32,000 bases of DNA, taken from contig NZ_JAGIOS010000002.1 of NCBI RefSeq assembly GCF_017876815.1, positions 1,020,001-1,052,000 on the forward strand. The letters run 5' to 3'. Positions 1 to 18,860 of this stretch are shown piece by piece. Positions within the stretch are counted from its first letter, which is position 1, and each line of letters begins with the position of its first letter. The DNA is from Sinorhizobium meliloti. GTDB lineage: Bacteria > Pseudomonadota > Alphaproteobacteria > Rhizobiales > Rhizobiaceae. The notes under the pieces were generated by a model. The model was not told where the DNA came from and did not search any database. It saw nothing but the letters and a program-made list of their open reading frames with translations. The position numbers and the translations under genes were made by a program.

Positions 1-268
1 CGATGACGACGGCATCCGCGCCGAAAAGCCTGTGCGCATGCTTGGAGACGAGTTCGTACGGGTCCGTGTAGAACACGAGGTCGCAGAAATCCGGCGCGGC
101 CAGATCGCGGTTGCTCGCATACCAGGGCACGTCCCGTTCCAGGAACGTCACCTTGTGCCCGGCAGCGTCGAGCGCGCGAAGCAAAGCACGATAGGTCGTC
201 GCATGACCGTTGCCCCACGAGGAGGACAGCGAGAGACCGAGAATGACGATGTCGAGCGGTCGCTTCAT
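1..268 (-). CDS. CgeB-like glycosyltransferase, paralogue 3; only the N-terminal 89 codons are present and the gene runs off the left window edge
   Basis: Absent from the ORF track because it is truncated. The reverse strand from ATG 268-266 reads MKRPLDIVILGLSLSSSWGNGHATTYRALLRALDAAGHKVTFLERDVPWY..., the same N-terminal pattern as the two upstream paralogues. GGAGG lies 7 nt upstream. There is an ATGA start/stop overlap with the 265..1350 gene. Confidence 0.6.
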   Translation of the reverse strand, partial: MKRPLDIVILGLSLSSSWGNGHATTYRALLRALDAAGHKVTFLERDVPWYASNRDLAAPDFCDLVFYTDPYELVSKHAHRLFGADAVVI

Positions 269-1350
269 TCGGCAGCCTCCATGCGGTGCGCCCGCCGCAA
301 GACGCGATCCACCTCCTCGGCACGATGCGCATAGGTATGCTCGGCGAGAACGCGGCGGAGCGCCCGCTCGCCGATCTCCCTGGCGCCGGCAGCCGTCAGC
401 TTCTGCATCAGTTCGGCGACGTCCCGGCCGTCTCTGGCGACCAGCACTTCTTCTCCGGGCTTCAGGAAGAGCTCGATGCCCTCCCAGTAGTCGGTGATCA
501 GGCAGGCGCCGGCGCCCGCGGCCTCGAAGACGCGGGTTGCCGGCGAGAAGCCGTTTTCGGCCATGCTGGCGCGTGAAATATTCAGGACGGCATTCGGCGT
601 CGTGTTGAAGGCATTGTGGTCGGCGGTCGGGACGTGTCCGATATAGGCGACATTCGGGGACAGAGACTTGTCGTGCCACCCGGATCCGCCGAGCAGGAAA
701 CGCCGCTGCCAGAGCTTTTGCGCCGGCTCGAGGAAGAAGGCCTCCACGCGCTCCTCCCGATCTGGCAGGCGGTTGCCGAGGAAGGCGAGATCGGCGACAA
801 AGCGCGGATCCGGCGGCACCGGATGGTGCGTCTCGGGATCGACGGCATTGTAGATCGGAACGCATTCGCGGGCACCGAGCACGCGATAGGCGTCGACCAC
901 GGGATCGCCGCCGCCATAGGTCAGCACAAGATCCAGGGAGGAAAGCGCGCGGCGAAGCGGGTGGTCGGGTGCGGCCTTGAGCTCGGCCAGAGTGGCTGGT
1001 GCATCGACATCCCAGAAGATTTTCAGCGCCGCCGAGTCTGCCGCGGCCATCACCTCGGCAAGCAGCAGCTCGTCCTCGAAGCCGACGCCGCTCGCCTTGA
1101 CGACGATCTCCGCCTTGGCTGCTTCCTGCGCCACTCGCTTCAACGCCTCGACGGTCCCGTCATAGACGACGACCCTGCACCAGGAGGGCGGGTCGATATC
1201 GCGGTGCTTCTGCCGATCGTAGACATCAGGCTCGTAGAAGGTGATCTGATAACCCCGTTCGGCAAGCGCACGGAGCAGGCCGCGATAATAGGTGGCCGCG
1301 CCGTTCCAGTAGGCCGAAACGAGACTCGATCCGTAAAATGCCAGTCTCAT
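265..1350 (-). CDS. CgeB-family (GT1-fold, DUF3880-like N-terminus) glycosyltransferase, paralogue 2, 361 aa
   Basis: The real start is the internal ATG at 1350 (MRLAFYGSSLVSAYWNGAATYYRGLLRALAERGY...). It is preceded by GGAGGAGG and overlaps the upstream stop as ATGA. The C-terminal half (FLLGGSGW...NISRASMAENGFSPATRVFEAAGAGACLITD) is typical of CgeB-like group-1 glycosyltransferases. The 70-codon upstream extension in the ORF track is Arg/Gly-rich junk. Confidence 0.8.
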   Translation of the reverse strand: MRLAFYGSSLVSAYWNGAATYYRGLLRALAERGYQITFYEPDVYDRQKHRDIDPPSWCRVVVYDGTVEALKRVAQEAAKAEIVVKASGVGFEDELLLAEVMAAADSAALKIFWDVDAPATLAELKAAPDHPLRRALSSLDLVLTYGGGDPVVDAYRVLGARECVPIYNAVDPETHHPVPPDPRFVADLAFLGNRLPDREERVEAFFLEPAQKLWQRRFLLGGSGWHDKSLSPNVAYIGHVPTADHNAFNTTPNAVLNISRASMAENGFSPATRVFEAAGAGACLITDYWEGIELFLKPGEEVLVARDGRDVAELMQKLTAAGAREIGERALRRVLAEHTYAHRAEEVDRVLRRAHRMEAAE

Positions 1351-2477
1351 ACCTCGACCTCCTCCGAAATGATCTGTCGCGCGCCGGAGCGCGGCCTGTA
1401 GGAGGCCACGATGGCGAGCAGCTCGTCGACGCGATGGCTGCATGTGTGGCGCGCCCGGACCGTCTCCAATCCGCAGGCGGTCATCTCCGCGGCGAAGTCC
1501 GGTTCGGCGAGCAGCTGGCGCAGAAGGCGCGTCATCTCCTTGCCGTCCTTGGCAAGGCAAAAATCCTTGCCCGGCCGGAAAAGCCCTTCAGCATCGGTCC
1601 ATGGCGCCGAAATCAGCGGAATGCCGCAGGCAAGCGCCTCGAAGACGCGGATTGTCGGTATTCCCGGCAGAGCCTCGACATAGGGCCGGCGCGGAATGTG
1701 CACGGTGACCCGATGCTCGGCGAAAGCCCGCGGAACGGCGGCATTGGCGAGCCAGCCGCCATAGTCGATTTTTGCGGAGCGCAAGGCCCTGAGCGCGGCC
1801 TTGGGATATCGCACGCCGCGGACGGTCGTCCTGAGCTTCAGCTTTTTCGCCGGTTCGACCAGAAAGGACATGATCTCGCTGCTGCGCTCGTCGTCGCCCC
1901 AATTGCCGATCCAGATGAGCTCGCCCCGCTTCTCCACTTCCGGCATCGGGTGGAACAGCGAGGTATCCGCAGCCTCGTGCCAGGTATGGACATGCCTTCC
2001 CCAGCCCGCCTGCAGATAGCGCTCCCGCAGCGCCTCACCGAAGGCCAGAACGAAGTCGTAACCGGAAAGGTCGAGCCGGGCGATGTCCCGCTCGGCGCTG
2101 ACGGCGCGGTGATGGGTATCGTGGAAAGCGAGCGTGAAGCGGCCGCCTTTCAGGCGAATGCGGCCGAGCTCGGCGACGAGGGCGGGATCGGTCCACTCAT
2201 GCACGATGACCATGTCGGCCTCGCAGGCCGCCGCTTCATGCTCGAAATCGGTTCCGTAGATCCCGACCCGCAAATCCGGGAAGGCCTTGCGGAAGGCCGC
2301 GATCGCTCCGTTACCCTGATCTACGATGAGATTGCGCCGGCTCCAGGAATCGCCGGGCTCGAGCGCTACGGCCTCGTGGCCGCGCCGGATGAGTTCGCGC
2401 ATGATGCCGCGCAGAAAATGCGCATTGCCGTGGTTCCAGTCGGACACCAATGAGTGGGTGTAGAAGAGAAATCGCAT
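1347..2477 (-). CDS. CgeB-family glycosyltransferase, paralogue 1, 376 aa
   Basis: ATG at 2477 (MRFLFYTHSLVSDWNHGNAHFLRGIMRELIRRGH...), with GGAG 9 nt upstream and a 4-nt gap after the upstream stop. It is colinear in sequence with the 265..1350 product (IWIGNWGDDERS / VHIPRRPYVEALPGIPTIRVFEALACGIPLISAPW). Confidence 0.8.
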   Translation of the reverse strand: MRFLFYTHSLVSDWNHGNAHFLRGIMRELIRRGHEAVALEPGDSWSRRNLIVDQGNGAIAAFRKAFPDLRVGIYGTDFEHEAAACEADMVIVHEWTDPALVAELGRIRLKGGRFTLAFHDTHHRAVSAERDIARLDLSGYDFVLAFGEALRERYLQAGWGRHVHTWHEAADTSLFHPMPEVEKRGELIWIGNWGDDERSSEIMSFLVEPAKKLKLRTTVRGVRYPKAALRALRSAKIDYGGWLANAAVPRAFAEHRVTVHIPRRPYVEALPGIPTIRVFEALACGIPLISAPWTDAEGLFRPGKDFCLAKDGKEMTRLLRQLLAEPDFAAEMTACGLETVRARHTCSHRVDELLAIVASYRPRSGARQIISEEVEV

Positions 2478-2481
2478 CCGC

Positions 2482-3633
2482 TCACTCCGCTGCCGTCAAT
2501 CGATCGGACCCGCTCATCACGCGCCGGTAGGCGGCGAGCACCGCGTCGCGCTGGGCCTCGACGGTGAAATCGGCCGAGCGCAGCCGCGCCCGCCGGCCAA
2601 GGTCGGCCCTGAGCTTTGCATCCTCCGTCAGCCGGTTGACGGCTTCGGCAAAGGCGGCGGGATCGCCGGGGTCGGCGAAAAGGGCGGCACCCTGCCAGAG
2701 CTCGCGATAAGTTTCGATGTCGGCGAGAACCAGTGCAGCGCCTGCGCGCGCCGCCTCCAGCGCCACCAGGCCGAAGGGTTCGTAGACCGATGGAGAGACG
2801 ACGATAGCGGCCCTCGACATCAGCGTCATCGTCCGGTCGTGGCTGAGCTCGCCTTCGTGATCGGCATGCATGATCGCCAGGTGCTGCCCGTTCGGCCCTT
2901 CGCAGGCACCGGCCATCACGACCGGCCAGTCTATGTCGGCGGCCGCCCTGTCGAGCACGGCGCCATTCTTGCCTTCGTCCCACCAGCGACCGGCCGCAAA
3001 AACGAAGTTTTCCCTGGCGCTGACGAAGCATGCATTCCGGCTCGCATTATAGACGACTGCGAGATCGTGGATTTCACCGTAAGTACGCGTCAGGGCCGCG
3101 GCATGGCTTCGGCTCGGCGCGAGCACCAGGTCGGCGCGGTCGAATCCCAGCCGGTTCAATCGCTTCTGCCAGCGCCAGGCTTCCGGCAGACCGGACCCGC
3201 GCACCGCAGCGAACCAGGTGGCGACGCAGGAATGCGAGACGGTGACGACGGGGACCTCCGCCGTTATTCGCGCGGCTTGGGACGGCAGGTTGAGATGGAG
3301 GAGATCGACGGAATGCCTGAGCGCAAGTTCGGACAGGAGCTGCGGCACGCGGTCGAGCTCGCTCTCGTCTTCGACCATCCAGTCGAGCGGTGTCGAGAGC
3401 CATTCGAGCCGGCCGATGCTCTTCGCCTCGCGCCGTTGCTCCGCGGAAGGTTGAGGGCCGAGGCCGACGATCAGCGTCTCCACGCCGGAACCCCGCATGG
3501 CGGCAGCGAGATCCATAGCATAGCGCCAGACGCCGCCCACGGCATCGACCGTCATCAATACCCGCCGCGGCAGTGGGCCGGAGACGTTGTGACGGTCGTC
3601 AAATCCAGCGGCGGAAAAGGGGGGAAGGCTCAC
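2482..3633 (-). CDS. GT4-family (GT-B, retaining-type) glycosyltransferase
   Basis: RVLMTVDAVGGVWRY forms the first beta strand and glycine loop. The E-x7-E motif EPFGLVALEA lies near the C-terminus. I take the GTG at 3633, which forms a GTGA overlap with the upstream stop; an alternative ATG at 3555 would clip the first strand. The 692-aa ORF in the track is an artefactual extension. Confidence 0.75.
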   Translation of the reverse strand: MSLPPFSAAGFDDRHNVSGPLPRRVLMTVDAVGGVWRYAMDLAAAMRGSGVETLIVGLGPQPSAEQRREAKSIGRLEWLSTPLDWMVEDESELDRVPQLLSELALRHSVDLLHLNLPSQAARITAEVPVVTVSHSCVATWFAAVRGSGLPEAWRWQKRLNRLGFDRADLVLAPSRSHAAALTRTYGEIHDLAVVYNASRNACFVSARENFVFAAGRWWDEGKNGAVLDRAAADIDWPVVMAGACEGPNGQHLAIMHADHEGELSHDRTMTLMSRAAIVVSPSVYEPFGLVALEAARAGAALVLADIETYRELWQGAALFADPGDPAAFAEAVNRLTEDAKLRADLGRRARLRSADFTVEAQRDAVLAAYRRVMSGSDRLTAAE

Positions 3634-4751
3634 GCGGTGACCCTCCGCGGTTGGCGCCGGATCCCGCTGACCGCGCCCCGATCGTCGTGAAGCCAGGCGT
3701 AGAGGTCGCGCAAGCCCTCGCGCCAGGGCATCCCGGCCTTCCAGCCGAGCGCATCGGCGATCGCGCGCGTATCGGCGACGAAGTACAATTGGTCGCCGGC
3801 GCGCCAATCGCTTTTTGCCGTCGCGAGCTTGCGGCCGGTCAAAAGCTCGATCTCGTTCAGCACGTCGACAATGCTGACGGCATTGCCGGGTCCGCCTCCA
3901 AGATTGAAAGCGCGCCCCTTCAGGCGGTCGATCGAGTTCAGGAGCGCCCTGTAGGCCGCGACCGCATCGGTGACATGAAGAATGTCGCGGACCTGCTTGC
4001 CGTCGCCATAGATCGAAATCGGCTCGCCGGCGAGCGCGCGAATGAGGAAATGGGCGACCCAGCCCTGGTCCTCGGTGCCGAACTGCCTCGGCCCATAGAC
4101 GCAGCTCATCCTGAGCACGGCGGTCGGCAAGCCAAAGGAGCGGGCATAATCTAGCACATACTGGTCGGCGACGCCCTTCGAGCAGCCGTAGGGTGTACAG
4201 AAATCGAGCGGTTGGGTCTCGCTGACGCCATGCTCGCGCGTCGCTTCGTCGGCCGGCATGTAGCGGCCCCGCATGTCCTGCATCTCGATGTGCCCGAGCG
4301 CGCCATAGACCTTGTTTGTGCTGGCGAAGATGACTGGCGCGCGGCGCCCGGCCAGGCGTGCGGCTTCGAGCACGTTGAGCGTGCCGCGGGCATTCGTCTC
4401 GAAATCGTCCGTCGGCCGCTCGAGGCTGGTGGTTACCGCCGTCTGGGCCGCAAAATGAAACACGGCCTTGGCGTCTCTGAAGGCAGCTTCGATCGCGCCG
4501 AGGTCGCGGATATCGGCGATCAAGGCCTCGACGGCGCGGCCGTGGCCGTCCACCAGCCATTCGAGGTTTCGCTCGACGCCGGGACGGCTGAGATTGTCGA
4601 GAACGATCACGTGCTCGCCGTCGCGCAGAAAGCTGTCGGCGAGATTGCAGCCGAGAAAGCCGCTGCCGCCTACAACCAGGATCGGCGCCGCCTTGCCGGA
4701 AAGAGCGGGCGCCGCCAGATGCCGGTCCGTGCCGACGGTCCGGCCGCTCAT
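3630..4751 (-). CDS. Extended-SDR NAD-dependent nucleotide-sugar epimerase (CDP-paratose/tyvelose 2-epimerase-like), 373 aa
   Basis: ATG at 4751 overlaps the upstream stop (ATGA). It has the Rossmann motif ILVVGGSGFLGCNL, the catalytic YGCSKG (YxxxK) and FGTEDQGWVAHF, which is characteristic of the paratose-epimerase-like clade. Confidence 0.8.
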   Translation of the reverse strand: MSGRTVGTDRHLAAPALSGKAAPILVVGGSGFLGCNLADSFLRDGEHVIVLDNLSRPGVERNLEWLVDGHGRAVEALIADIRDLGAIEAAFRDAKAVFHFAAQTAVTTSLERPTDDFETNARGTLNVLEAARLAGRRAPVIFASTNKVYGALGHIEMQDMRGRYMPADEATREHGVSETQPLDFCTPYGCSKGVADQYVLDYARSFGLPTAVLRMSCVYGPRQFGTEDQGWVAHFLIRALAGEPISIYGDGKQVRDILHVTDAVAAYRALLNSIDRLKGRAFNLGGGPGNAVSIVDVLNEIELLTGRKLATAKSDWRAGDQLYFVADTRAIADALGWKAGMPWREGLRDLYAWLHDDRGAVSGIRRQPRRVTA

Positions 4752-5854
4752 AGGACCAGCCCCCGTGCTTCCAGATGGCGTTTCATCTCGGCACCGCGGT
4801 CGATCGCGCCGGCGCTCCGGACCCATTGGGCGAAATCCGCAAGCGAATCCTCGAGCCGGTGGGCCGGTTCGAAGCCGAGAAGGTCGCGTGCCTTGGCGAT
4901 ATCGGCGAAGCAATTGCGGATGTCGCCGGAGCGGGCCTTGTTGATGATCTCCGGCTCGATATCGGGGACACCCATCGCTTCGGCAAGCAGCGAGGCGATG
5001 TCCGCAATGGCGTAGGCGTTGCCGCTGCCTATATTGATGACGTGGCCGGCGGCGTGCGGCTGTTCGAGCGCCAGCCGGAAGGCACGCGCCACGTCGCGGA
5101 CATGCACGAAGTCGCGTTTCTGGCGGCCGTCCTCGAAGACCATCGGCGATTGCCCGTTGGCAAGCCGGGAAGCGAAGTTGGCAAGCACGCCGGTATAGGG
5201 GTTGGAAAGTGCCTGGCCGGCGCCGTAGACGTTGAATAGCCGCAGCGCCACCGCGTCCGTGCCATAGGCTTCCCCGAATATAAGGACCTGACGCTCCTGC
5301 GCATATTTGGTGAGCGCGTAGATCGAAGCGAGATCGACGGGCTTATTCTCGTCGGTGGCGATCGGCCTCAGGCGTTCGCCGTCAGGACCGGACGGGTTCC
5401 AGGCGCCGGCTTTGATCTCGGCGGGGGATCGCCGGATATGCGCACGGCGCTCGCCTGCCGTAGTCTCGTACAAGCCCTCGCCGTAAACGCTCATGGAAGA
5501 GGCGACGACGATCCGCCGGATCGGCATGCCGATCATCGCCTCGAGAAGGACGGCGGTGCCCAGGTCGTTCACGCCGACATAGCGGGAAATCTCATACATC
5601 GACTGGCCGACGCCGACTTCCGCGGCGAGATGAATGACGTGATCGACGTCCTTCAGCGCGCTTTTCACCGCGTCTGCGTCGCATATGTCGGCGCGCCGCA
5701 TGTCTACTTCCGGTGGCAGCGTGACCTGCGCATCCGCATGGACCTGATCGTTCAACGCATCGAGGACGCGCAGGTCGTAGTTCCTTGAAAGAAGCTCTTC
5801 GACAACATGCCGCCCTATGAAGCCGCAGCCGCCGGTAACAAGTACTTTTGTCAT
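4748..5854 (-). CDS. Extended-SDR NAD-dependent epimerase/dehydratase (UDP-hexose 4-epimerase-like with a ~40-aa insertion), 368 aa
   Basis: ATG at 5854 (MTKVLVTGGCGFIGRHV...); the track start at 5875 is a TTG. It has the catalytic YALTKY and is the first gene of the six-gene minus-strand operon. Confidence 0.85.
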   Translation of the reverse strand: MTKVLVTGGCGFIGRHVVEELLSRNYDLRVLDALNDQVHADAQVTLPPEVDMRRADICDADAVKSALKDVDHVIHLAAEVGVGQSMYEISRYVGVNDLGTAVLLEAMIGMPIRRIVVASSMSVYGEGLYETTAGERRAHIRRSPAEIKAGAWNPSGPDGERLRPIATDENKPVDLASIYALTKYAQERQVLIFGEAYGTDAVALRLFNVYGAGQALSNPYTGVLANFASRLANGQSPMVFEDGRQKRDFVHVRDVARAFRLALEQPHAAGHVINIGSGNAYAIADIASLLAEAMGVPDIEPEIINKARSGDIRNCFADIAKARDLLGFEPAHRLEDSLADFAQWVRSAGAIDRGAEMKRHLEARGLVL

Positions 5855-5897
5855 AATGCACCTGATGATGACCAATCAGAGATAGAGACAAACCTCC

Positions 5898-5922
5898 AAC
5901 AAACCTGCGTCGCAAATGTTCC
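5898..5922 (-). promoter_or_regulatory. EcfG/RpoE2-type ECF sigma promoter candidate for the SDR-GT operon
   Basis: The minus strand reads GGAAC-ATTTGCGACGCAGGTTT-GTT and ends 43 nt before ATG 5854. The -35 element is embedded in the 14-mer AAAGAAGAAGGAAC, which is shared with the ino1 promoter. Confidence 0.45.
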
Positions 5923-5961
5923 TTCTTCTTTGACTTCTTCTTCTTTGATGTTCTTCTTTGA
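5923..5961. repeat. Three tandem direct copies of TTCTTCTTTGA (minus-strand TCAAAGAAGAA), spaced 15 and 13 bp apart
   Basis: Exact 11-mers lie at 5923-5933, 5938-5948 and 5951-5961 in the AT-rich divergent intergenic region. They sit immediately upstream of the minus-strand -35 element. Confidence 0.75.
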
Positions 5962-6038
5962 TCCCCCGCGGGGCGTCGCCCGTGCCAAGGTACAAACCTC
6001 TCTTTCGCGGGAGTGTTCCACGCGAACTGCGGGCATCA

Positions 6039-6063
6039 GGAACAAAAGCTGCAACATCAAGTT
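6039..6063 (+). promoter_or_regulatory. EcfG/RpoE2-type ECF sigma promoter candidate for the dehydrogenase/oxidoreductase operon
   Basis: GGAAC-AAAAGCTGCAACATCAA-GTT on the plus strand, 124 nt upstream of ATG 6188. Confidence 0.45.
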
Positions 6064-6187
6064 AAGGGCGGAAGGCTCTTGAACATTGCTCAGAGCTTTC
6101 TTTGGCCGGGGCAGGGGCGGGTCCGGCGGACCTCGCGACACCCTTTTCGGGCTGCCGGACAGGTCTCCACCGAGGGAAGGAGCTGAC

Positions 6188-7180
6188 ATGAACATCAGCA
6201 TATCTCAGCGGACGGACACGATGTCCGCCGCTATCGTCACCGGGCCGGGTACCGTGCGCATAGAGACGTTGCCGTTGCCGCAACCGGGTCGCGGCCAGGT
6301 GCGGATAAGGCTCGAAGGCTGCGGCGTATGCGCCTCCAATCTAGTTCCCTGGGCGGGTCCGGAATGGATGCAGTTTCCGACGGAACCCGGCGCGCTCGGA
6401 CACGAGGGCTGGGGAATTATCGACGCGGTCGGCGAGGACGTGCACGGTTTCGCGCCGGGCGATCGCGTGGCGGCGCTTTCCTACCATGCCTATGCCACGC
6501 ACGATATCGCCGATCAGAGCGCGATCGCGCCCTTGCCGGCGTCTCTTGCAGGTCAGCCCTTTCCCGGCGAACCGCTCGGCTGTGCCTTCAACATCTTCCG
6601 GCGCAGCGCGATCAGTCCGGGAGAGACCGTGGCGATCGTCGGCATCGGTTTTCTCGGGATTCTTCTGACCGAGCTCGCAAGCGCTGCCGGCGCGCGGGTG
6701 ATAGCGATATCGCGCAGGCCGTCTTCGCTCGCCGCGGCCAAGCAGGCCGGCGCGAGCCAAGTGATTCCCATGGACGATCACTGGCGGATCATCGAAGAGG
6801 TGAAGCAACTGACCGGCGGGCGCTTCTGCGATTGCGTCATCGAGGCGGTCGGCAAGCAATGGCCGCTCGATCTTGCCGGCGAACTGACGAAGGAGCGCGG
6901 CAGGCTCGTCGTCGCAGGATATCACCAGGATGGCCCGCGGCAGGTGAACATGCAGCTCTGGAACTGGCGCGGCCTCGACGTGATCAACGCGCATGAACGC
7001 GATCCTGCCGTCTACATGCGCGGCATGAACGAGGCGATCGAAGCGACCGCAGCGGGTCGGTTCTCTCCCTCGCGGCTCTACACCCATCGGTTCCCGCTCG
7101 AAGAACTCGGCGCCGCGCTCGACATTACGCGCGACCGGCCGGAAGGTTTCATCAAAGCGCTGGTGATCTGCCATGAGTGA
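6188..7180 (+). CDS. Zinc-type medium-chain (MDR) alcohol/polyol dehydrogenase, 330 aa
   Basis: ATG 6188 is preceded by GGAAGGAG. It has the motifs EGCGVCASN and GHEGWGIIDAVGEDV, plus the Rossmann motif VAIVGIGFLGILL. Confidence 0.85.
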   Translation: MNISISQRTDTMSAAIVTGPGTVRIETLPLPQPGRGQVRIRLEGCGVCASNLVPWAGPEWMQFPTEPGALGHEGWGIIDAVGEDVHGFAPGDRVAALSYHAYATHDIADQSAIAPLPASLAGQPFPGEPLGCAFNIFRRSAISPGETVAIVGIGFLGILLTELASAAGARVIAISRRPSSLAAAKQAGASQVIPMDDHWRIIEEVKQLTGGRFCDCVIEAVGKQWPLDLAGELTKERGRLVVAGYHQDGPRQVNMQLWNWRGLDVINAHERDPAVYMRGMNEAIEATAAGRFSPSRLYTHRFPLEELGAALDITRDRPEGFIKALVICHE

Positions 7181-8198: not shown

Positions 8199-8227
8199 GG
8201 TGGCGTGCGGTCCGCTGCGACTCCATC

Positions 8228-9976
8228 CTAATCCCCGTCGATCCGGCGCCGAAGGAGCCTCGCATAGCGCGCGGCTGCGGCCTCCAGCCGGGGGACTTCC
8301 TCGGGGGCGGCCGCGGACTTTGCCGACATCCACAGTCCCAGCTGGAAAGCGAGATAGCAGATTTCCAAGAGCTCCATCAGCCCGGCATTTTGACCGCGCG
8401 ACCAGCCTTCGGAGACGGCCGCACGCAGCTCCGCCCGCTCCTCCCGCGTGAGGTCGAATTCTATGCTCGCTCCCGCAATGTCCCAGCCGATGTCCTGACA
8501 GCCGATGAGGTCATGGGCACTGCTGTGGTCGAGCGCGTCGGTCTTGAGAATGTGTCGCTCTCCTTCGACCAGCCATTCCCACCGGTGAAGCCGGTTGTCC
8601 GTATCGACCGGCAGGATCGTCGAATTGTATCGCTCCGCATCGCCGAACCTGGTCTTCAACCGCGACGCTGCCGCTCTGCCCAATGCCTCTTCGGTGTTGA
8701 TCATTGCCATCTCGCAAAGTTTGGCCATGGATGCCCCTTGCGCCGCTGGCGGCGGCAGGCTGCGCGCCCGGAAGGACAGATATCGGCCGAGATGCGCGAT
8801 GAAGGCCGGCCGGCGGAATTCCGGCGGCGCCATCAGCCTCGCGGAAACCCATTTCTGAACCAGAAAGCCATGGCACAATCCGGCGACCGGGGGCGTGAAG
8901 CCTGCATCGGCGAGGAGGCGGGCCTTGACGAGCTTTCGCTGCCCAGCGTCGCCGAGTCCCGCAAACTTGACGAGCCACGGACCGTCGGCGGTGTGCGCCA
9001 GGAATTTCCGGCGTTCGAACCTGCCGTCCACGGGAGGCCAGCGATCGCCGGGAAGCGTCTTGCGCCATAAGCCGGCTGAGACGTCTTCGAGCGGCTTCTC
9101 GAGCGGGCCGACGAGATGGGCGATCCAATCGGCGAGGTGGCGCGCAGAGTTGGACGGCCTGATCAGGAGATCGTCGACGTCGATGACATTGCGCGGCCTC
9201 GCCGCCCAGCGCTCGCGATGACGGCCGCAGGATTGCGGTCCAAGCCCGCCCTTGTGGCCGGGGAAGAAGTGAATGCGCCTGCCGCTGACGCCGTGATCCT
9301 CCAGCCAATCCGCGACGCATCCGAACGAGCTGCCGGAAAGGCCGGGTCCTTCGTCCACGATCGCGAAATTCGCCGCCCGGTCGCGCAGCAGCCGTTCCGC
9401 AAGTTGCGGCGCGACTGCAAGCCGCCGTTGGAACGGATCGCCGATCGGCCGCAGTGTGACCGGAGGCGCGGCACCGATGGAAGCCGCGACAATCGCCGAA
9501 AGCGTGGTCCCGATGCTGCGCAGGCCGATCACCACCGTGTCGGCAGGAAGCCCGGAGCCTGCCGCGGCCTCGAGATAGCTCTCCGGGTAAAGAGCATAGA
9601 AGGCGTAGCCTTCCGGCTCGCGAATGCTGAGGGAAAGCGGTGCCTGGCTGTTCGCCAGCGACCTTGCGACACGGGCCGGCACGACCACCGGGCCGGCGAA
9701 GCCCTGGCGCCAGGACCGGGCGACGAGTCCGGCAAGGTCGAGGAGGAGGCACTCGCCCGTCTGGCGCGATGCGGAGATTTCGTCGGCTCCCATCTGCGCC
9801 AATTCCAGGTCGGCAAGCCCCTGCACCAGTTCCCCGGCCCTGAGCAGGATGGCGACGAGCTCGGTGTGGCGCTCGATGCCCGCCGGCAGGTGTTGGGCCG
9901 CCTGCAGGCGCGAGGCGATCTCTGCGCATAGCATGTCGGCGCGCTCCAGGCGCTTTGCGTCACCGTATACGAGCAT
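8228..9976 (-). CDS. Hypothetical 582-aa multidomain protein: central PRTase-like segment plus C-terminal protein-kinase/APH-like segment
   Basis: This is a long ORF with an ATG start and GC3-rich coding character. VVIGLRSIGTTLSAIVAASIG ... FAIVDEGPGLSGSSFG resembles a phosphoribosyltransferase nucleotide loop. WLVKFAG ... LHRWEWLVEGERHILKTDALDH..HDLIGCQDIGWDIAG resembles the Lys strand and catalytic/activation loops of APH-type kinases, but without the canonical HxDxxxxN. The domain calls are tentative. Confidence 0.65.
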   Translation of the reverse strand: MLVYGDAKRLERADMLCAEIASRLQAAQHLPAGIERHTELVAILLRAGELVQGLADLELAQMGADEISASRQTGECLLLDLAGLVARSWRQGFAGPVVVPARVARSLANSQAPLSLSIREPEGYAFYALYPESYLEAAAGSGLPADTVVIGLRSIGTTLSAIVAASIGAAPPVTLRPIGDPFQRRLAVAPQLAERLLRDRAANFAIVDEGPGLSGSSFGCVADWLEDHGVSGRRIHFFPGHKGGLGPQSCGRHRERWAARPRNVIDVDDLLIRPSNSARHLADWIAHLVGPLEKPLEDVSAGLWRKTLPGDRWPPVDGRFERRKFLAHTADGPWLVKFAGLGDAGQRKLVKARLLADAGFTPPVAGLCHGFLVQKWVSARLMAPPEFRRPAFIAHLGRYLSFRARSLPPPAAQGASMAKLCEMAMINTEEALGRAAASRLKTRFGDAERYNSTILPVDTDNRLHRWEWLVEGERHILKTDALDHSSAHDLIGCQDIGWDIAGASIEFDLTREERAELRAAVSEGWSRGQNAGLMELLEICYLAFQLGLWMSAKSAAAPEEVPRLEAAAARYARLLRRRIDGD

Positions 9977-10063
9977 GAAGTTTCGCTCACTTTCCTGTCC
10001 GCCCCTTCAACGCGCTGCGGCTGAATTCGATCCGCGATGCGCGAGAAACGGGAGAAAGAAGAA

Positions 10064-10088
10064 GGAACCAATCGGTTGCGCGCGGGTT
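10064..10088 (+). promoter_or_regulatory. EcfG/RpoE2-type ECF sigma promoter candidate for the ino1 operon
   Basis: GGAAC-CAATCGGTTGCGCGCGG-GTT, ending 39 nt before ATG 10128. It is preceded by AAAGAAGAA, so the 14-mer AAAGAAGAAGGAAC at 10055-10068 is identical to the one at 5931-5918 on the minus strand. Confidence 0.45.
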
Positions 10089-10127
10089 TGGCAAGCATTG
10101 TAGATACTGTGCAGGAGTAGTGGTGAG

Positions 10128-11231
10128 ATGCGATCGAACTCCATTCGGGTCGGGCTGGTCGGTGTCGGCAATTGCGCGTCCTCCCTCGTCCAAGGGCTGA
10201 CATTCTATCGCGACGCGAAGGAGGACGAGCCGGTTCCGGGGCTGATGCATACCAATCTCGGCGGATATCACGTCGGCGATATCGAGGTCTCCGCGGCCTT
10301 CGACGTCGCCGCTTCGAAGGTCGGGCGCGATGTCGCCGAAGCCATCTACGCCGCTCCCAATAACACGTTCCGCTTTGCGGATGTTCCCGCCACCGGCGTA
10401 GTCGTCGAGCGCGGCAGGACGCTCGACGGCATCGGCCGCTATCTGCGCGAGGAGATCGAGGAGTCCGATGCGCCCGCCGCTGACGTTGCGGAGGTCCTGC
10501 GGCAGACCGGGACGGACGTGCTCGTCTCCTATCTTCCGGTCGGTTCCGAAGTCGCCACGCGCTGGTATGCGGAGCAGGCGCTTGCCGCCGGCTGCGGCTT
10601 CGTCAACTGCATTCCCGTTTTCATCGCCTCGGACAAGTCGTGGCAGCGCAAATTTGCCGAGCGCGGCCTGCCGCTCATCGGCGACGACATAAAGAGCCAG
10701 GTCGGCGCGACCATCGTGCACCGGTTGCTTGCCAATCTCTTTCGCGACCGGGGGGTGCGCATAGATCGGACCTATCAGCTCAATTTCGGCGGCAATACCG
10801 ACTTTCTCAACATGCTCGAGCGGGAACGGCTCGAATCGAAGAAGATTTCCAAGACCCAATCGGTCGTCAGCCAGATGGATATTCCGCTCGCGGCCGGCGA
10901 CATCCACGTCGGCCCGAGCGATCACGTCCCTTGGCTTGCCGACCGCAAGTTCGCCTATATTCGAGTCGAGGGCACGACATTCGGCAACGTTCCCCTCAAC
11001 GTCGAAGTGAAGCTCGAAGTCTGGGACTCGCCGAATTCCGCAGGAGTCGTCATCGATGCGGTTCGCTGCGCCAAACTCGCAATCGACCGCGGCATCGCCG
11101 GTCCGCTGATCGCCCCTTCGAGCTACTTCATGAAATCGCCGCCGCAGCAGTTCACCGATGCCGAAGCGCGTAGACGCCTGGAGGAATTCATCGCCGGCGA
11201 TACCGACGCACTTCTGGGGGCGGCCGAGTGA
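10128..11231 (+). CDS. ino1: myo-Inositol-1-phosphate synthase (bacterial/archaeal short type), 367 aa
   Basis: It has [43 protein letters not shown] and SKKISKTQS, the diagnostic MIPS blocks seen in actinobacterial and archaeal enzymes. AGGAG lies 10 nt upstream. Confidence 0.92.
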
Positions 11232-11827
11232 CGACCACTTTCCTTCTGGTGCGCCATGCCGCCCATGACAGGGTCGGCTGCTTTCTTGCCGGGCGGACCG
11301 GCGACGTACCGCTCGGCATCGCGGGCCGCGAGCAGGCTCAGCGGCTCGCGGCCCGTCTGGCCGGCGAAGGCATAGGCTCGATCTATGCGAGCCCGCGCAA
11401 GCGCACGCAGGAAACGGCCGCGGCGATCGCCGCGGCGTCGGATGTCGCGGAGGTCGTGACCACGGAAGCGCTCGACGAGGTGGATTTCGGCGACTGGTCG
11501 GGCAAGACCTTCGACGTCCTCGATACCGACCCGCTCTGGCGGCGATGGAACGCTATGCGAAGCCTCGTGCGTGCCCCCGGCGGCGAGACGATGCTGGACG
11601 TGCAATGCCGGGCGGTGGGACTTGTCGCGGCGCTGGCGCAGCGGCACGGCCAGGAGAAGGTCGCTCTGGTCAGCCACGCGGACGTCATCAAAACCCTGGT
11701 CTGTCACATCCTCGGCCTTTCCTCCGACGCCTGGCCGCGCTTCGATATCGCGCCTGCCTCCGTCTCGGTGCTGGTGATGGGCGATTGGGGAGCGAAAATC
11801 CAGACGCTGAACGAAAACGTGTCGTAG
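11228..11827 (+). CDS. Histidine-phosphatase superfamily (PGAM-like) phosphatase, 199 aa
   Basis: It has LLVRHAAH (the RH motif), [11 protein letters not shown] and the second His in VSHADVIK. Its GTG start overlaps the ino1 stop (GTGA), so it is translationally coupled to ino1. Confidence 0.85.
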
Positions 11828-11898
11828 CCGGCCGGCCCGTCCGCCGGTGCCGCAAGCGCGGGAAGCCGGCCGGCGTTTCCGGCAATTCGGAGGTACTC

Positions 11899-12861
11899 AT
11901 GATCGAAGCCGCCATGATCTGGAACGAGCCGAACAACAAGTCGCATTGGGATCCGGAGATCGATCCGGACTGGAGCCGCTTTGCCCATATGGCAAAGCTG
12001 GCCGCGGCTGCGATCCGGGAGGTCAATCCCGGGCTCACGCGCGTGCTCGGCGGAATTTCGCCGATTGATCCGAACTTCCTCGCTCTTATGAAATCGCAAG
12101 GCGTGCTCGACCACGTCGACGCCGTTGCGGCCCATGGTTTCCCACTCGACTGGAACCTCTGGCAGATCCATGAATGGCCGCAGAAGCTTGATGAACTGAA
12201 GAGCGTCACCGAACTGCCGGTCTGGGTAAGCGAGGTCGGCGTCTCCACCTTCGGCGCCGAGGAGGTGCAGCTTTGGGGACTGAAGCGAACCGCCGAACTC
12301 CTGAAGGGCCGGGCGGATCGGATCCAATGGTACAGCCTCTACGACCTGCCGCGGGCCTGGCCCGCGACGACGCGACACCGGGAGGCCGAGGGCTCGTCCT
12401 ATTACCGGCATTTCTACATGGGTCTTCTGCGCGAGGACGGCTCGCCGAAACTGGCGTTCGAGGAGTTTGCCCGCCACACGCCGGAGATCGGGCTCGTACA
12501 ATGGTTCCATTTCGAGGACCCGCGCCTCGATGATGCCGTCGCCTGGATGAAGCGCCTAGGCGTCACATATCTGCGCACCGGTCTCTCCTGGGCCGACCGC
12601 TTCCGGCCGAACGCGCTCGACTGGTTCGACCGCCAGATGGAGGCACTCGAAGATTTCGACGTCACCGTCACCTTCTGCTTCACGCCCGAGCACCGGGGGC
12701 TTGCCCCGCACCACACGAGCGCGCCCCTCGTTCCGGAGGAATTCGCCGAATTCTGTGCCGAAATGACGGCGCGTTATGCGCCCGCCCCGTCGTCCTTCGA
12801 GCCCTTGCGCCCGGGCCTCGCGATGGCGTCGACGAGCCTGCCGATCGAGCCGCGTGAATAG
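11899..12861 (+). CDS. Clan GH-A (GH39/GH5-like) TIM-barrel glycosidase-like protein, apparently circularly permuted, 320 aa
   Basis: ATG 11899 has GGAGG 5 nt upstream. The protein starts directly at the strand-4 acid/base motif (MIEAAMIWNEPNN) and has a nucleophile-type motif (LPVWVSEVG). Its C-terminus looks like strands 1-3 of the barrel (GVTYLRTGLSWADRF...DWFDRQMEAL...VTVTFCFTPEH...FAEFCAEMTARY). The 438-aa track ORF is an out-of-context extension. Confidence 0.65.
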   Translation: MIEAAMIWNEPNNKSHWDPEIDPDWSRFAHMAKLAAAAIREVNPGLTRVLGGISPIDPNFLALMKSQGVLDHVDAVAAHGFPLDWNLWQIHEWPQKLDELKSVTELPVWVSEVGVSTFGAEEVQLWGLKRTAELLKGRADRIQWYSLYDLPRAWPATTRHREAEGSSYYRHFYMGLLREDGSPKLAFEEFARHTPEIGLVQWFHFEDPRLDDAVAWMKRLGVTYLRTGLSWADRFRPNALDWFDRQMEALEDFDVTVTFCFTPEHRGLAPHHTSAPLVPEEFAEFCAEMTARYAPAPSSFEPLRPGLAMASTSLPIEPRE

Positions 12862-14198
12862 GTCACGCCCTGGTAGAGAGCGAGCATCGCCGAAGCCCAG
12901 CGGAGATAGGCGGCCGGCATGTTCAGGGCTCTGGCAAGCCAGAAGACACGGTGGCTGTTCGCGCTGATCGCGCTACGCAGCCAGTAAACCAGCATCCGCC
13001 GTGCGGGCAAGCCGCTCCACTTCGGCGCAACGCGTTTCCTCGGCTTGATGCCGGAACGCGGCCAGGCCAGCCGGAAGGCCAGCCCCTCTCGCCTTTGCCT
13101 GAAACCGGCAGCCTGTGTCTCCACGACGAAGGCACTGTCGACCGCACTCAGTTCGAGCCTTCCCTCCTCGATCGCATCGGCCACGAGCGCCTGCAGCAAG
13201 GGTGAGCGAACGACAACCACATTCGTTCCCCGGCCGTCGGACGAATAGGGCTCGACCCAGGCGTCGCCGAAGGAAATGTCGGCGGTTTCGGCCACGACGT
13301 CGTCGCAGAAATTGCAGGCGGAATTCTGGAAGAACCCGGCTCCCCAGTCGCCGTCGACCAGATGCCACCAATCCTTGCTTCTCGTGCTTCCGTCCTTGAG
13401 CCGCAGATGGGCCGTGTACCAGTTCGCCGGTCTTGCCGTATCCTTCAGGCGGTAATCGACGCCCGCCACGGCGTTCATTTCCGTGTCCATCTGCCACGCG
13501 AAACTTTCCACGAAGCGGGTGCTCTTCATGTGTCCGCAGAAGAGGCCGAGGGTGAAGGCAAGGCGCTCCTCAAGCACCGGGTCGTTGAGGCAGAGGAGAT
13601 GGATCGCTTTGATGAAGCAGGGAATCCCGACGACTGCGTAGCGGCCGGGTTGCCGCTTCATTTCGGCGATGACACGAGAGAGCTCCACCGGATAATAGCG
13701 CGACTTGGCGCCCTTGCGCAGGTCATCCGCGGTCCGCGAGACCTGATACTGGAAAAGACGTTCGCCGGCGCCTGAACAGGGAACTACATGCGCCACCGCG
13801 TCGACGAGGTTCCTCTTCAGAAGCTCCGCGGCCGTCCAACTGGCCATGCCGCCGGAACTGCCGTCCGCTCGAAAGCTGCCTTCGCTGACATGGCCGACAT
13901 AGGCTGCCTCGAAGCGGCCGATCCGCGGATCGTAAAATTGCGCCGATCCGAAGCGCGCCTCGGCGATCTGGTCTTCGCTTCGGGCGTGGGGCGAAAAGGG
14001 GCACAGCTCGGCGAACCCGTCGGGGCGATGTGCAGCGGCCGGTTTTAGCTGGCCGTAGCGATCGAGACTCATCGCAGCGCTGCCGCCCGATTGCGCCATG
14101 CACGTGCCGCAACCGATGCAAAGCCCGGATTTCGCCATCTGCCCCGGCGAGAGCAAGGCGCTGGCCGAGGCGGGTGCGGGGCGCTCAGGCGAGAACAT
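12774..14198 (-). CDS. Coenzyme F420 hydrogenase/dehydrogenase beta-subunit (FrhB/FdhB)-like Fe-S flavoprotein, 474 aa
   Basis: The N-terminus has a ferredoxin-type motif, CIGCGTC...ELCP. The FrhB-like core is YAVVGIPCFIKAI, LFCGHMKS and DISFGDAW. ATG 14198 overlaps the upstream gene by 14 nt; an alternative start exists at 14138 (MAKSGLCIGCGTC). Confidence 0.8.
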   Translation of the reverse strand: MFSPERPAPASASALLSPGQMAKSGLCIGCGTCMAQSGGSAAMSLDRYGQLKPAAAHRPDGFAELCPFSPHARSEDQIAEARFGSAQFYDPRIGRFEAAYVGHVSEGSFRADGSSGGMASWTAAELLKRNLVDAVAHVVPCSGAGERLFQYQVSRTADDLRKGAKSRYYPVELSRVIAEMKRQPGRYAVVGIPCFIKAIHLLCLNDPVLEERLAFTLGLFCGHMKSTRFVESFAWQMDTEMNAVAGVDYRLKDTARPANWYTAHLRLKDGSTRSKDWWHLVDGDWGAGFFQNSACNFCDDVVAETADISFGDAWVEPYSSDGRGTNVVVVRSPLLQALVADAIEEGRLELSAVDSAFVVETQAAGFRQRREGLAFRLAWPRSGIKPRKRVAPKWSGLPARRMLVYWLRSAISANSHRVFWLARALNMPAAYLRWASAMLALYQGVTYSRGSIGRLVDAIARPGRKGSKDDGAGA

Positions 14199-15249
14199 CT
14201 GTCAGATAGGTCCGTGATTGCCGGCGGAGCTCGGCGAGCCTTCGCGCGATGGCCGGGCTCGGGGCTTCTGCGAGAAGTGTCTCGTAGCCGGCTTGCGGCG
14301 TCGCCTGCGACACCACGTGCCGTTCCGCACCGGCGGTGTGTGCGAGATCGGCGATCTTGTTGGAACGATAGTCTGAAAGGACCGTGACGAATGGCTTGGC
14401 GTTGAGGAGAGAGAAAATGCAGCCGTGGAAGAAATTCGTCGCGACGGCCTCGGCACCCGCGATACAGGCGGCGAACTCGTAGGGACCGGCATCGAGCCAC
14501 TGCTCGTCCGCCCATTCGTTGCGATAGCCTATGCTGACGAGAGGCAGCGAGCGCGTCGTCGCCCAATGGCGAACCGCGTGCTGAAACCAGGACGGGAACG
14601 AATGTCCGTAGACCGCTATATAGGGGCGCGAAACCAGAGTATTCGGACCGAAGGAAATCGTCTCGGGGAACTGCAGGCAAGGGTCGAGGACGAGCGTCGC
14701 CTCGCGTCCGACATCCTTTTCGATGATCGCCCTCGAATTGTCGTCGCGGACGGAAATTCCATCGAATTTCCGCAGCCTTTCAGCCCAATATGGTTCGAGG
14801 CCATTGGCCGCGGGGTGGTTTCCGAACGTCGCCGCGTAGGAAACGGTTCTCTTGGCCGAGAGGCCCTCTCCGTAGAAAAGCGAGCAACCGCCGTACCAGG
14901 GATGCCGCAAGTTCCAAACCTCGTCGCTGCCCACGACGACGATATCGCATTCTTCGGCACCATCAGGGTCGTCCAGCGCGAAGGGGGCACTCATCGGCAC
15001 CGACGCCAGAGCGCTCTGAAATTTTCTGATCTTGGAAGCGTAGAGCGGAATGTCCCCGCGCGGGGTTCTCTCCGGCAGGAGCGGCTGCATAGCGCAGCGC
15101 CACTCGGCCCGGGTGACACGGGCGGAATGATGATCGAGGACAATGGGGTCGGTGCCGAGCGAACGAAGTCCGTGGACAAGAGATCGCGCCTGCCAGAACG
15201 ATCCATAATTGATGCAGCGGTGGAAGGTCAAAACGCCGAGCTTCGCCAA
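14185..15249 (-). CDS. Polysaccharide pyruvyl transferase family protein (WcaK/CsaB-like), 354 aa
   Basis: It has KLGVLTFHRCINYGSFWQ and VVVGSDEVWN, typical of PS_pyruv_trans proteins. The start is TTG at 15249, with AGGAG 10 nt upstream. Confidence 0.82.
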   Translation of the reverse strand: MAKLGVLTFHRCINYGSFWQARSLVHGLRSLGTDPIVLDHHSARVTRAEWRCAMQPLLPERTPRGDIPLYASKIRKFQSALASVPMSAPFALDDPDGAEECDIVVVGSDEVWNLRHPWYGGCSLFYGEGLSAKRTVSYAATFGNHPAANGLEPYWAERLRKFDGISVRDDNSRAIIEKDVGREATLVLDPCLQFPETISFGPNTLVSRPYIAVYGHSFPSWFQHAVRHWATTRSLPLVSIGYRNEWADEQWLDAGPYEFAACIAGAEAVATNFFHGCIFSLLNAKPFVTVLSDYRSNKIADLAHTAGAERHVVSQATPQAGYETLLAEAPSPAIARRLAELRRQSRTYLTDVLA

Positions 15250-15298
15250 CGGCCCCTATCTCCTGATCATGGAAGCAGATCGCCGGGTCCAACCGGAT

Positions 15299-15574
15299 TC
15301 AATCGAAGATGGTTCCTTTCGCGCCCTCATATTCGCGCGCAAGCTCCTCGATCGCCGCCGATGCCTCCTCGAACGTCCAACCGGCCGCCTCGGCCCGACG
15401 GGCGAGCGCCAGCAGATCGTCGGTCAGCTCCCCGCCCATGGCCGCCACGATGCTTTCCTGGGATGTCGCCGCCAGCTCCGAAACGGCCGGTCGCAGAGCG
15501 GCGATGCAGTCCATCTGGCGACCCGGATAGTCGGAAGCGCGTTGAGGACGGGAAATGGCTTGTGACTCCTCCAT
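15299..15574 (-). CDS. Small acidic hypothetical protein, 91 aa
   Basis: ATG 15574 has AAGGAG 6 nt upstream. The composition is coding-like with an acidic helical C-terminus (GWTFEEASAAIEELAREYEGAKG). I recognise no family. Confidence 0.5.
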   Translation of the reverse strand: MEESQAISRPQRASDYPGRQMDCIAALRPAVSELAATSQESIVAAMGGELTDDLLALARRAEAAGWTFEEASAAIEELAREYEGAKGTIFD

Positions 15575-15602
15575 CTCGGTCTCCTTTTGCTGTCAGTCGT
15601 CA

Positions 15603-15627
15603 AATGACGGGCCCGGCCGATTGTTCC
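15603..15627 (-). promoter_or_regulatory. ECF-type promoter candidate (weaker -10) for the small ORF / pyruvyl transferase / FrhB-like operon
   Basis: The minus strand reads GGAAC-AATCGGCCGGGCCCGTC-ATT and ends 28 nt before ATG 15574. AGGAACAATCGG resembles AGGAACCAATCGG in the ino1 promoter. Confidence 0.33.
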
Positions 15628-15647
15628 TGCGGCAAATCGGTGTGGTT

Positions 15648-16199: not shown

Positions 16200-16251
16200 T
16201 CGAACACTCGCGACACATTGTGGGCCGCCTTGTTGCCGGCGGCTACCGGCA

Positions 16252-16276
16252 AACACGTCAGGCTCCGCAAAGTTCC
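16252..16276 (-). promoter_or_regulatory. EcfG/RpoE2-type ECF sigma promoter candidate for the DUF1003 gene
   Basis: The minus strand reads GGAAC-TTTGCGGAGCCTGACGT-GTT and ends 52 nt before ATG 16199. Confidence 0.4.
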
Positions 16277-16330
16277 GCGCGAGAAGGACGAGGCGGAAGC
16301 TCCCAGGCCAGCGGCCGGGGCCAAGGCTCA

Positions 16331-18111: not shown

Positions 18112-18123
18112 GAAGGAGACCGC

Positions 18124-18858: not shown

Positions 18859-18860
18859 AT

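Follow-up and report, generated by a model that had tools for sequence, protein, structure and literature searches.

The gene cluster of Sinorhizobium meliloti that is the subject of this analysis, SMb20238-SMb20255, is best introduced through the described systems that lie closest to it. In the mycothiol core synthesis of Actinobacteria, Ino1 acts together with the GT4 glycosyltransferase MshA and the phosphatase MshA2, and an inositol phosphate is glycosylated and then dephosphorylated. The mycobacterial polymethylated polysaccharides MGLP and MMP are cytoplasmic glycans without an exporter, whose clusters include methyltransferases and, for MMP, a hydrolase; MGLP is primed on a small non-sugar acceptor, itself made by a glycosyl-phosphate route whose last enzyme, GpgP, is of the histidine-phosphatase type. 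In plants, the route to galactinol, the raffinose family and the galactosyl-cyclitols proceeds through myo-inositol-1-phosphate synthase (MIPS) and a phosphatase to a glycosyl-inositol that transglycosidases of the glycoside hydrolase (GH) type extend; it is induced by stress and desiccation, and methylated cyclitols are employed as well. The S. meliloti cluster comprises 18 contiguous genes, of which SMb20240 (in part) to SMb20255 occupy positions 1-16276 of the 32,000-nucleotide stretch analyzed (the window; contig NZ_JAGIOS010000002.1, positions 1,020,001 to 1,052,000), with SMb20238 and SMb20239 to the left of it. An exact-protein look-up places the window at approximately 245111-277110 of the megaplasmid pSymB (AL591985) in the same orientation, with genes SMb20240-SMb20254 at its left, such that a window coordinate is the published pSymB coordinate minus 245110; over a 4.6-kb piece, its identity with the S. 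meliloti SM11 plasmid NC_017326.1 is 100%. Gene identities were drawn from Pfam, NCBIfam and public gene calls on the same pSymB DNA, and bear out in nearly every detail the gene content described by a first-pass annotation made from the letters of the window. These data allow the construction of a model, to which we give about an even chance, whereby the cluster encodes a cytoplasmic, stress-induced pathway for a methylated, sometimes pyruvylated inositol oligoglycoside that acts as a protectant.

The main new result is the presence of RpoE2 promoter motifs ahead of the cluster operons and their conservation across genomes. The strict EcfG motif, GGAAC-N16-17-SGTT, occurs three times in the window, against 0.74 expected, and each copy is correctly oriented ahead of a cluster operon: at 5995-6019(-) for the operon led by SMb20245, at 10064-10088(+) for the MIPS operon, whose promoter spans 10064-10089(+), and at 15291-15316(-) for the pyruvyl transferase gene. 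Scanning with the S. meliloti RpoE2 consensus, GGAAC-N18-19-TT (PMC3738161), adds 6039-6063(+) ahead of SMb20246-20247, 15602-15627(-) ahead of SMb20254 and 16251-16276(-) ahead of SMb20255; only the operon of SMb20248 has no motif ahead of it. RNA-seq start sites with sigma-E2 motifs have been published for SMb20245, SMb20249, SMb20254 and SMb20255 (Schlueter et al., 2013; PMC3616915 Table S19), and their coordinates, less 245110, equal the motif positions found here, with starts at window 5985 for SMb20245 and window 10097 for the MIPS gene. The remaining two are candidate promoters, namely the rightly oriented GGAAC-N18-TT match at 6039-6063, which is unmapped, and the strict motif ahead of the pyruvyl transferase gene, which is not among the mapped start sites. 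Arrays from RpoE2 overexpression show all 18 genes raised by 0.78-3.19 log2, including MIPS (+2.24), the phosphatase (+2.96), the GH-like protein (+1.84), SMb20246 and SMb20247 (each about 2.5), SMb20254 (+2.93) and SMb20255 (+3.19), along with the intergenic probe SMb20253i20254 (3.26) and one intergenic probe between SMb20236 and SMb20238 (2.57); SMb20256 is not among the induced genes listed (Lang et al., 2018; PMC6180224 Data Set S1). The induced range, SMb20238-SMb20255, fixes both the locus tags and the borders of the cluster, which thus belongs to the RpoE2/EcfG regulon, the promoter motifs having been tested here and the dependence on the sigma factor being taken from the published arrays. 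The suggestion of the first-pass annotation that a stress metabolite may be produced thereby gains direct support, from the induction of 18 of 18 genes and from mapped promoters that coincide with motifs. Up to now this regulation is on record only in supplementary tables, and searches of a literature library, partly loosely framed, found no description of the cluster, its function or its product; an Ensifer aridi paper on inositol and RpoE2 deals with inositol catabolism (iol genes) and not with the present cluster.

Conservation was assessed by scanning one genome per species for the GH-like protein SMb20251 as a marker, which at least 595 species encode, most of them alphaproteobacterial; 80 loci were fetched, and co-inheritance was counted in the 65 with full 10-kb flanks. 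Of 75 loci, 60 have the RpoE2 consensus in the 250 nt ahead of MIPS, where about 4% would be expected, and 43 have the strict motif there. The consensus also precedes the first SDR gene in 48% of loci and the pyruvyl transferase gene in 50%, whereas for genes inside an operon (phosphatase, GH-like, GT4) the figure is 0-1%. Control by the general stress response is thus conserved along with the cluster and not a peculiarity of S. meliloti. The gene grouping itself recurs in all 65 loci and is therefore far beyond chance; these derive from Rhizobiaceae, Mesorhizobium, Devosia, Microvirga, Bradyrhizobium, Rhodoplanes, Methylorubrum and Acetobacteraceae, and annotated plasmids of Roseomonas, Paracoccus and Bradyrhizobium carry the same gene sets. 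The histidine phosphatase accompanies the marker in 65/65 loci and MIPS in 64/65, a co-inheritance of this trio that the first-pass annotation had proposed to check, and in Alphaproteobacteria the link between the sugar module and MIPS is nearly absolute. The TIGR04290 methyltransferase follows (56/65), then the CgeB-like transferases (39-49), GT4 (40), two SDRs (31-34), the UDP-xylose-synthase-like SDR (23), the MDR/Gfo pair (23), the 582-aa protein SMb20248 (21) and the pyruvyl transferase/FrhB pair (13); the 10-kb reach holds down several of the lower counts. Most often, the core operon consists of MIPS, the phosphatase, a CgeB-like glycosyltransferase (GT), a weakly matching NTP-transferase, the methyltransferase and the GH-like protein; S. 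meliloti is without this extra GT and without the NTP-transferase, a gene found in 39 other loci. The further members that emerge from unbiased clustering of neighboring open reading frames are all soluble enzymes, namely a second methyltransferase and proteins of the GT4-like, GNAT, B12-radical-SAM and phosphopentomutase-like kinds. Some versions outside Sinorhizobium add the phosphopentomutase-like enzyme together with a TIGR04295 B12-radical-SAM protein (e.g., locus L010, 15942-20815). The NTP-transferase, the phosphopentomutase-like and B12-radical-SAM proteins, the UDP-xylose-synthase-like enzyme and the "xylosidase"-like barrel, taken together, hint at pentose chemistry. As a separate observation, a gene resembling an ECF-type sigma factor by eye lies a few kb from the cluster in 16 of the 80 loci (e.g., L023, 14632-15303(-)).

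The enzyme at the head of the rightward operon, SMb20249 (10128-11231(+)), is similar over its full length to characterized MIPS, also termed inositol-3-phosphate synthase. It matches PF01658 (E=1.6e-34) and, over its whole length, M. tuberculosis Ino1 (PDB 1GR0; E=2.6e-148), while the five-membered-cyclitol synthase 6K96 is far weaker (1.6e-54); TIGR03450 aligns over 1-355 of 355 with 555 bits, against a cut-off of 638 for this mycothiol-specific equivalog. The GTGA overlap with the phosphatase gene that had been reported previously is read in the sequence at 11228-11231 and provides translational coupling. SMb20250 (11228-11827(+); PF00300, His_Phos_1, E=6e-49) is a branch-1 histidine phosphatase, nearest to phosphoserine phosphatase, PhoE-type phosphatases and the actinobacterial MSMEG_4193 family. 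The leftward operon, led by SMb20245, holds the sugar module. SMb20245 (4748-5854(-); Pfam Epimerase, E=2.5e-55) is an SDR of the NDP-sugar 4-epimerase type, with epimerase/dehydratase family proteins, MoeE5 and UDP-glucose 4-epimerases as best PDB matches, and SMb20244 ("tyv"; 3630-4751(-)) is an SDR epimerase that PDB sequence matches place closest to CDP-tyvelose 2-epimerase (E=7e-82 to 9RL0, 3.6e-76 to 1ORR). The glycosyltransferase SMb20243 (2482-3633(-); Pfam Glycos_transf_1 and Glyco_transf_4) is a generic GT4 whose best PDB sequence matches are the Tll1590 protein and alpha-maltose-1-phosphate synthase; the earlier analogy with MshA is not supported, as the protein reaches 43.5 bits with the MshA model TIGR03449, whose cut-off is 462.5, and matches it in the C-terminal 110 residues only. 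Three CgeB-like transferases follow: SMb20242 (1347-2477(-); PF13524, E=2e-38), the 361-aa SMb20241 (265-1350(-); PF13524, E=7e-39), whose start overlaps the stop of the upstream gene by 4 nt, and SMb20240, identified by gene calls and Pfam, of which the first approximately 89 codons lie at 1-268(-) before the window edge cuts the gene. Left of the window, the remainder of SMb20240 is followed by SMb20239, an SDR resembling UDP-glucuronate decarboxylase/UDP-xylose synthase, and by SMb20238, a methyltransferase (TIGR04290, 378 bits against a cut-off of 300). Within an operon, most neighboring genes overlap by 4-14 nt. TIGR04290 methyltransferase is closest to CmoB (PF08003) (locus L003, 14391-15185). 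CmoB transfers a carboxymethyl group from carboxy-S-adenosylmethionine, and the decoration might therefore be carboxymethyl instead of methyl. The accessory rightward pair comprises a zinc-dependent MDR dehydrogenase, SMb20246 (6188-7180(+); Pfam ADH_N, ADH_zinc_N), and a Gfo/Idh/MocA oxidoreductase identified by Pfam, SMb20247 (7173-8198(+)); their best NCBIfam matches, the scyllo-inosose 3-dehydrogenase IolM, far under its cut-off, and the inositol 2-dehydrogenase IolG, at 110 bits against 355, give a weak hint that both may act on a cyclitol. The second accessory pair consists of SMb20253 (14185-15249(-); PF04230, PS_pyruv_trans, E=7e-32), of the polysaccharide pyruvyl transferase family, and the FrhB/FdhB-like iron-sulfur flavoprotein SMb20252 (12774-14198(-); PF04432, PF04422), whose gene always adjoins the pyruvyl transferase gene in related loci.

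The third member of the conserved trio, SMb20251 (11899-12861(+)), is annotated as a "beta-xylosidase" and has more than 8000 homologs, with about 80% identity across several alphaproteobacterial families. Its AlphaFold2 model is an eight-stranded (beta/alpha)8 barrel (pTM 0.81). With its profile in native order, only residues 4-192 align with the GH39 enzyme PslG (133-330, E=1.7e-4), while moving the last 108 residues to the front gives a colinear alignment with PslG 25-320 (E=1.6e-6). Non-permuted relatives were found by exhaustive search, and in BLASTP against one of these, query residues 1-187 match target 111-295 (E=5e-41) and query residues 197-294 match target 10-109 (E=6e-17). This match in two pieces of swapped order therefore proves, at the level of sequence, that SMb20251 is a circular permutant of a GH39-like barrel, and the permutation proposed by the first-pass annotation can be accepted. 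In clan GH-A barrels of family 39, the acid/base glutamate sits in an NEP motif behind strand 4 and the nucleophile glutamate behind strand 7. Two glutamates of catalytic type, E10 (WNEPN) and E112 (VSEVG), are invariant in every aligned GH-like sequence; their counterparts in PslG are the stretches WNEPN and STEWGWS, which hold the catalytic glutamates of that enzyme. The protein begins directly at the NEP strand and has neither a signal peptide nor a hydrophobic segment. Pfam GH39 scores 13.8 bits against a cut-off of 26, and only marginally better on the re-ordered sequence, and the strand order is permuted; SMb20251 may thus be regarded as a relative of GH39 (clan GH-A), its membership not being demonstrated, with a predicted activity. 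Foldseek with the model returned generic TIM-barrel matches only, as is to be expected when a sequential aligner is given a permuted barrel. As annotated, the genes of SMb20251 and the convergent SMb20252 overlap by 88 nt at their 3' ends (12774-12861), which could reflect a mis-set stop or start, or overlapping convergent transcripts.

Divergent from MIPS lies the accessory 582-aa, two-domain protein SMb20248 (8228-9976(-)), for which Pfam, NCBIfam and PDB sequence searches were without match, and which had been read as a fusion of a phosphoribosyltransferase-like and a kinase-like domain. The kinase-like reading gains support. In an AlphaFold2 model with pLDDT 89.6, Foldseek matches the C-terminal half to the choline kinase LicA, to eukaryotic choline kinases and to the spectinomycin phosphotransferase APH(9) at a TM-score of about 0.6 on the target, and invariant K337, D480, D495 and D499 could fill the usual kinase roles, with an atypical Brenner motif. 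The model thus supports a choline-kinase/aminoglycoside-phosphotransferase fold for this half, a putative kinase. The phosphoribosyltransferase-like label of the other half stays a guess: this half is an alpha/beta domain with an invariant loop, AIVDEGPGLSGSSF (VDEGPGxSGSSF), which follows a strand and resembles a PRPP motif, a profile search of PDB sequences with this half was without match, and the Foldseek list was filled by matches of the kinase half.

The model of the pathway proposes that heat, salt or starvation stress leads RpoE2 to activate the promoters that precede every operon but that of SMb20248, four of them shown and two presumed. MIPS would convert glucose-6-phosphate to inositol phosphate, as its similarity at the level of 1GR0 suggests, and the coupled histidine phosphatase would strip the phosphate, either before or after the first glycosylation. 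The soluble GT4 and the three CgeB-like transferases may then assemble a short sugar chain on the inositol from nucleotide sugars reshaped by the three SDRs, which probably act as 4-epimerase-like, CDP-tyvelose-2-epimerase-like and UDP-xylose-synthase-like enzymes. The TIGR04290 methyltransferase would methylate the product. Further decoration, or a change to the cyclitol, could come in some lineages from the pyruvyl transferase and its FrhB-like partner and from the MDR and Gfo enzymes. The permuted GH39-like barrel, in the cytoplasm, may trim or transglycosylate the chain. The product would remain in the cytoplasm as a protectant, as genes for lipid-carrier priming, for a flippase, for a polymerase and for an exporter are all missing from the cluster.

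Several points weigh against this proposal. Each enzymatic step and the nature of the product, including the use by the transferases of inositol or inositol phosphate as acceptor, are things that we infer from family membership. The GT4, by its scores, is not MshA-like, and in most genomes it is a CgeB-like GT, and not the GT4, that sits directly behind MIPS and the phosphatase; an MshA-like first step is unsupported. Pyruvyl transferases and hydrolases like PslG typically belong to systems for exported polysaccharides, and the view in other genomes covers 10 kb on each side of the marker. The place of inositol is also put in question by distant relatives. Some non-permuted GH-like relatives, 35-38% identical, are fused to a CDP-tyvelose-epimerase-like SDR domain (loci L094/L095, 10001-11878; L093, 1302-3377), a fusion that ties the GH-like protein functionally to nucleotide-sugar metabolism. 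On metagenomic contigs of 49-70 kb, one such fusion lies in the order SDR, GH-like::SDR fusion, MDR dehydrogenase, GT4, three CgeB-like GTs and methyltransferase; a second contig shows the same order plus a Gfo gene. The SDR, dehydrogenase, CgeB-like and methyltransferase proteins of this module are 47-58% identical to their S. meliloti counterparts, and the GT4, the GH-like part and the fused SDR 35-36%. Genes for MIPS and the phosphatase are absent from the 10 kb around it, so that inositol may have been added in particular lineages and may not form the core of the molecule. The sugar module is accordingly older and wider than its link to MIPS, and the description of the locus as "built around" MIPS was too strong.

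An alternate scenario is that the cluster makes the repeat units of an exported surface or capsular polysaccharide, for which the genes for priming, flipping, polymerization and export would lie elsewhere in the genome. Exopolysaccharide operons commonly encode a pyruvyl transferase and a GH39 hydrolase like PslG, and pSymB carries many polysaccharide export genes. However, as had been noted for the window before, it encodes neither an exporter nor a flippase, a polymerase, a priming transferase or a CDP-alcohol transferase, and the same holds for the 10 kb to its left. The possibility, raised earlier, of export genes beyond the left edge is not borne out in that stretch: more biosynthetic genes are found there, then, left of SMb20238, two small genes, after which come a sugar importer of the binding-protein-dependent kind and a GH172 gene. 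Across the 80 loci, drawn from many genera, the cluster contains no priming transferase, flippase or polymerase and no protein for which at least three membrane segments are predicted, the membrane proteins encoded nearby vary from locus to locus, and exporter families are absent from the recurrent neighbors of related loci. A Kyte-Doolittle scan reads all S. meliloti cluster proteins as soluble except the DUF1003 protein SMb20255, the only one in the block with a stretch resembling true membrane segments; the four transferases have no hydrophobic segments, and the GH-like protein lacks a signal peptide. We therefore consider an exported polysaccharide unlikely.

Two further scenarios appear less probable still, each about as improbable as the other. 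In the first, the transferases glycosylate a cytoplasmic protein or other macromolecule, as CgeB-type enzymes do on the Bacillus spore surface, and inositol is a side product or decoration. Three CgeB-like (PF13524) transferases, the lack of lipid-carrier machinery and induction by stress would all agree with this. However, the cluster encodes no conserved candidate acceptor protein, and the tight linkage of MIPS and the phosphatase (64-65 of 65 loci) would be left unexplained. In the second, the product is a cyclitol that is secreted as a natural product or as a signal, in the manner of rhizopines or aminocyclitols, to which MIPS, the IolG-like and IolM-like oxidoreductases, the B12-radical-SAM enzyme of some versions, and the resemblance of the kinase-like domain to APH(9), which acts on an aminocyclitol, might point. 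However, the cluster has no aminotransferase, exporter or resistance gene. Further, at least 595 species carry the marker, it is about 80% identical among them and the cluster is under general-stress control, and with this breadth, identity and control a housekeeping-type protectant fits better than a specialized metabolite. That inositol is not the aglycone and instead feeds the nucleotide-sugar supply (by plant-like oxidation of myo-inositol to UDP-glucuronate/UDP-xylose) or inositol lipids is very improbable, as myo-inositol oxygenase, CDP-alcohol phosphatidyltransferase and acyltransferase were not found in the cluster at any locus, even though MIPS, the phosphatase, the kinase-like protein, the nucleotidyltransferase (in most genomes) and the UDP-xylose-synthase-like enzyme co-occur. 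Two defined pathways were also considered and rejected. A mycothiol pathway fails on the MshA test, and MshB, MshC and MshD were not found among the window genes or recurrent neighbors; an inositol-lipid or di-myo-inositol-phosphate pathway fails on the lack of a CDP-alcohol phosphatidyltransferase in the window or among recurrent neighbors.

The surroundings of the cluster are as follows. At its right end lie SMb20254 (15299-15574(-)), a small 91-aa protein known from gene call and annotation with no function assigned, and SMb20255 (15648-16199(-); PF06210), the last gene of the co-induced block; a DUF1003 gene adjoins the cluster in Paracoccus yeei too. An SRPBCC-family gene (16328-16777(-)) and an adenylate/guanylate cyclase gene (16960-18018(+)) separate the cluster from a gene set at 18123-32000 that is typical of hydroxyproline catabolism and unrelated to the cluster. 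This set comprises a GntR regulator, a DHDPS-like protein, an Ldh_2 reductase, an aldehyde dehydrogenase, an amino-acid ABC importer, an FAD oxidoreductase, a 4-hydroxyproline epimerase, aconitase X and a proline-racemase-family dehydratase; SMb20264 is hypN (PMC6180224 Data Set S1). At the left, the sugar ABC importer, the GH172 glycosidase and a LacI regulator adjoin the cluster (locus L003, 15977-21131). G+C content is even across the region, the cluster being like its flanks, and the cluster is common to Sinorhizobium species; the term "island," as it had been applied to this locus, is thus not apt in the sense of foreign DNA, and recent horizontal acquisition, for which there is no indication, was rejected on the normal G+C.

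Alphaproteobacteria rely on the general stress response for protection against heat, salt and starvation, as well as against drying. Most target genes of this response are without known function (150 of 202 induced genes in S. meliloti; PMC3616915). Eighteen co-induced genes conserved with a stress promoter, from Sinorhizobium to Mesorhizobium, Devosia, Microvirga, Bradyrhizobium and Acetobacteraceae, constitute a concrete and testable candidate for the synthesis of a protective compound, and give this response a widely conserved candidate biosynthetic output. A new protectant pathway would be of practical use, given the problem of keeping rhizobial inoculants alive on seed and in dry soil. 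Oddly built enzymes of three kinds are found in the cluster as well, namely the permuted GH39-like barrel, the soluble CgeB-type transferases and the kinase-like fusion without family assignment. More speculatively, and with rather more doubt than confidence, the cluster could represent an undescribed class of cytoplasmic, methylated, inositol-anchored oligosaccharides under general-stress control, the permuted barrel serving as transglycosylase instead of hydrolase, which would be the bacterial counterpart of the plant galactinol/raffinose-type protectants and would in part explain the stress and desiccation protection conferred by EcfG/RpoE2.

The comparison with known systems may now be drawn. 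As in mycothiol core synthesis, an actinobacterial-type MIPS, a GT4 and a phosphatase are encoded together, and glycosylation of inositol phosphate followed by dephosphorylation would fit the cluster; however, its GT4 falls below the MshA cut-off, MshB, MshC and MshD are lacking, and three CgeB-like transferases, three SDRs, a methyltransferase and the GH-like protein are added. Unlike in MGLP and MMP synthesis, the acceptor would be inositol and not glycerate, the transferase and hydrolase families differ, and the methyltransferase is CmoB-like (TIGR04290), with no lipid-binding role indicated. The plant galactinol pathway employs unrelated enzyme families (GT8, GH36) in eukaryotic hosts, and the analogy with it is functional only. 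PslG, from the Psl exopolysaccharide operon of Pseudomonas, is the closest solved relative of the GH-like protein, with both glutamate positions aligned, and both hydrolase-type proteins are encoded within a glycan biosynthesis operon; however, the S. meliloti protein is permuted, has no signal peptide or extra domain, and belongs to a cluster without export genes. With other members of the RpoE2 regulon the cluster shares GGAAC-N18-19-TT promoters, mapped starts and induction by RpoE2 overexpression, while differing from them as an 18-gene block that reads as one biosynthetic pathway. The cluster would work most like mycothiol core synthesis and like the synthesis of the mycobacterial polymethylated polysaccharides, with a stress role like that of the plant galactinol protectants, as a member of none of these systems.

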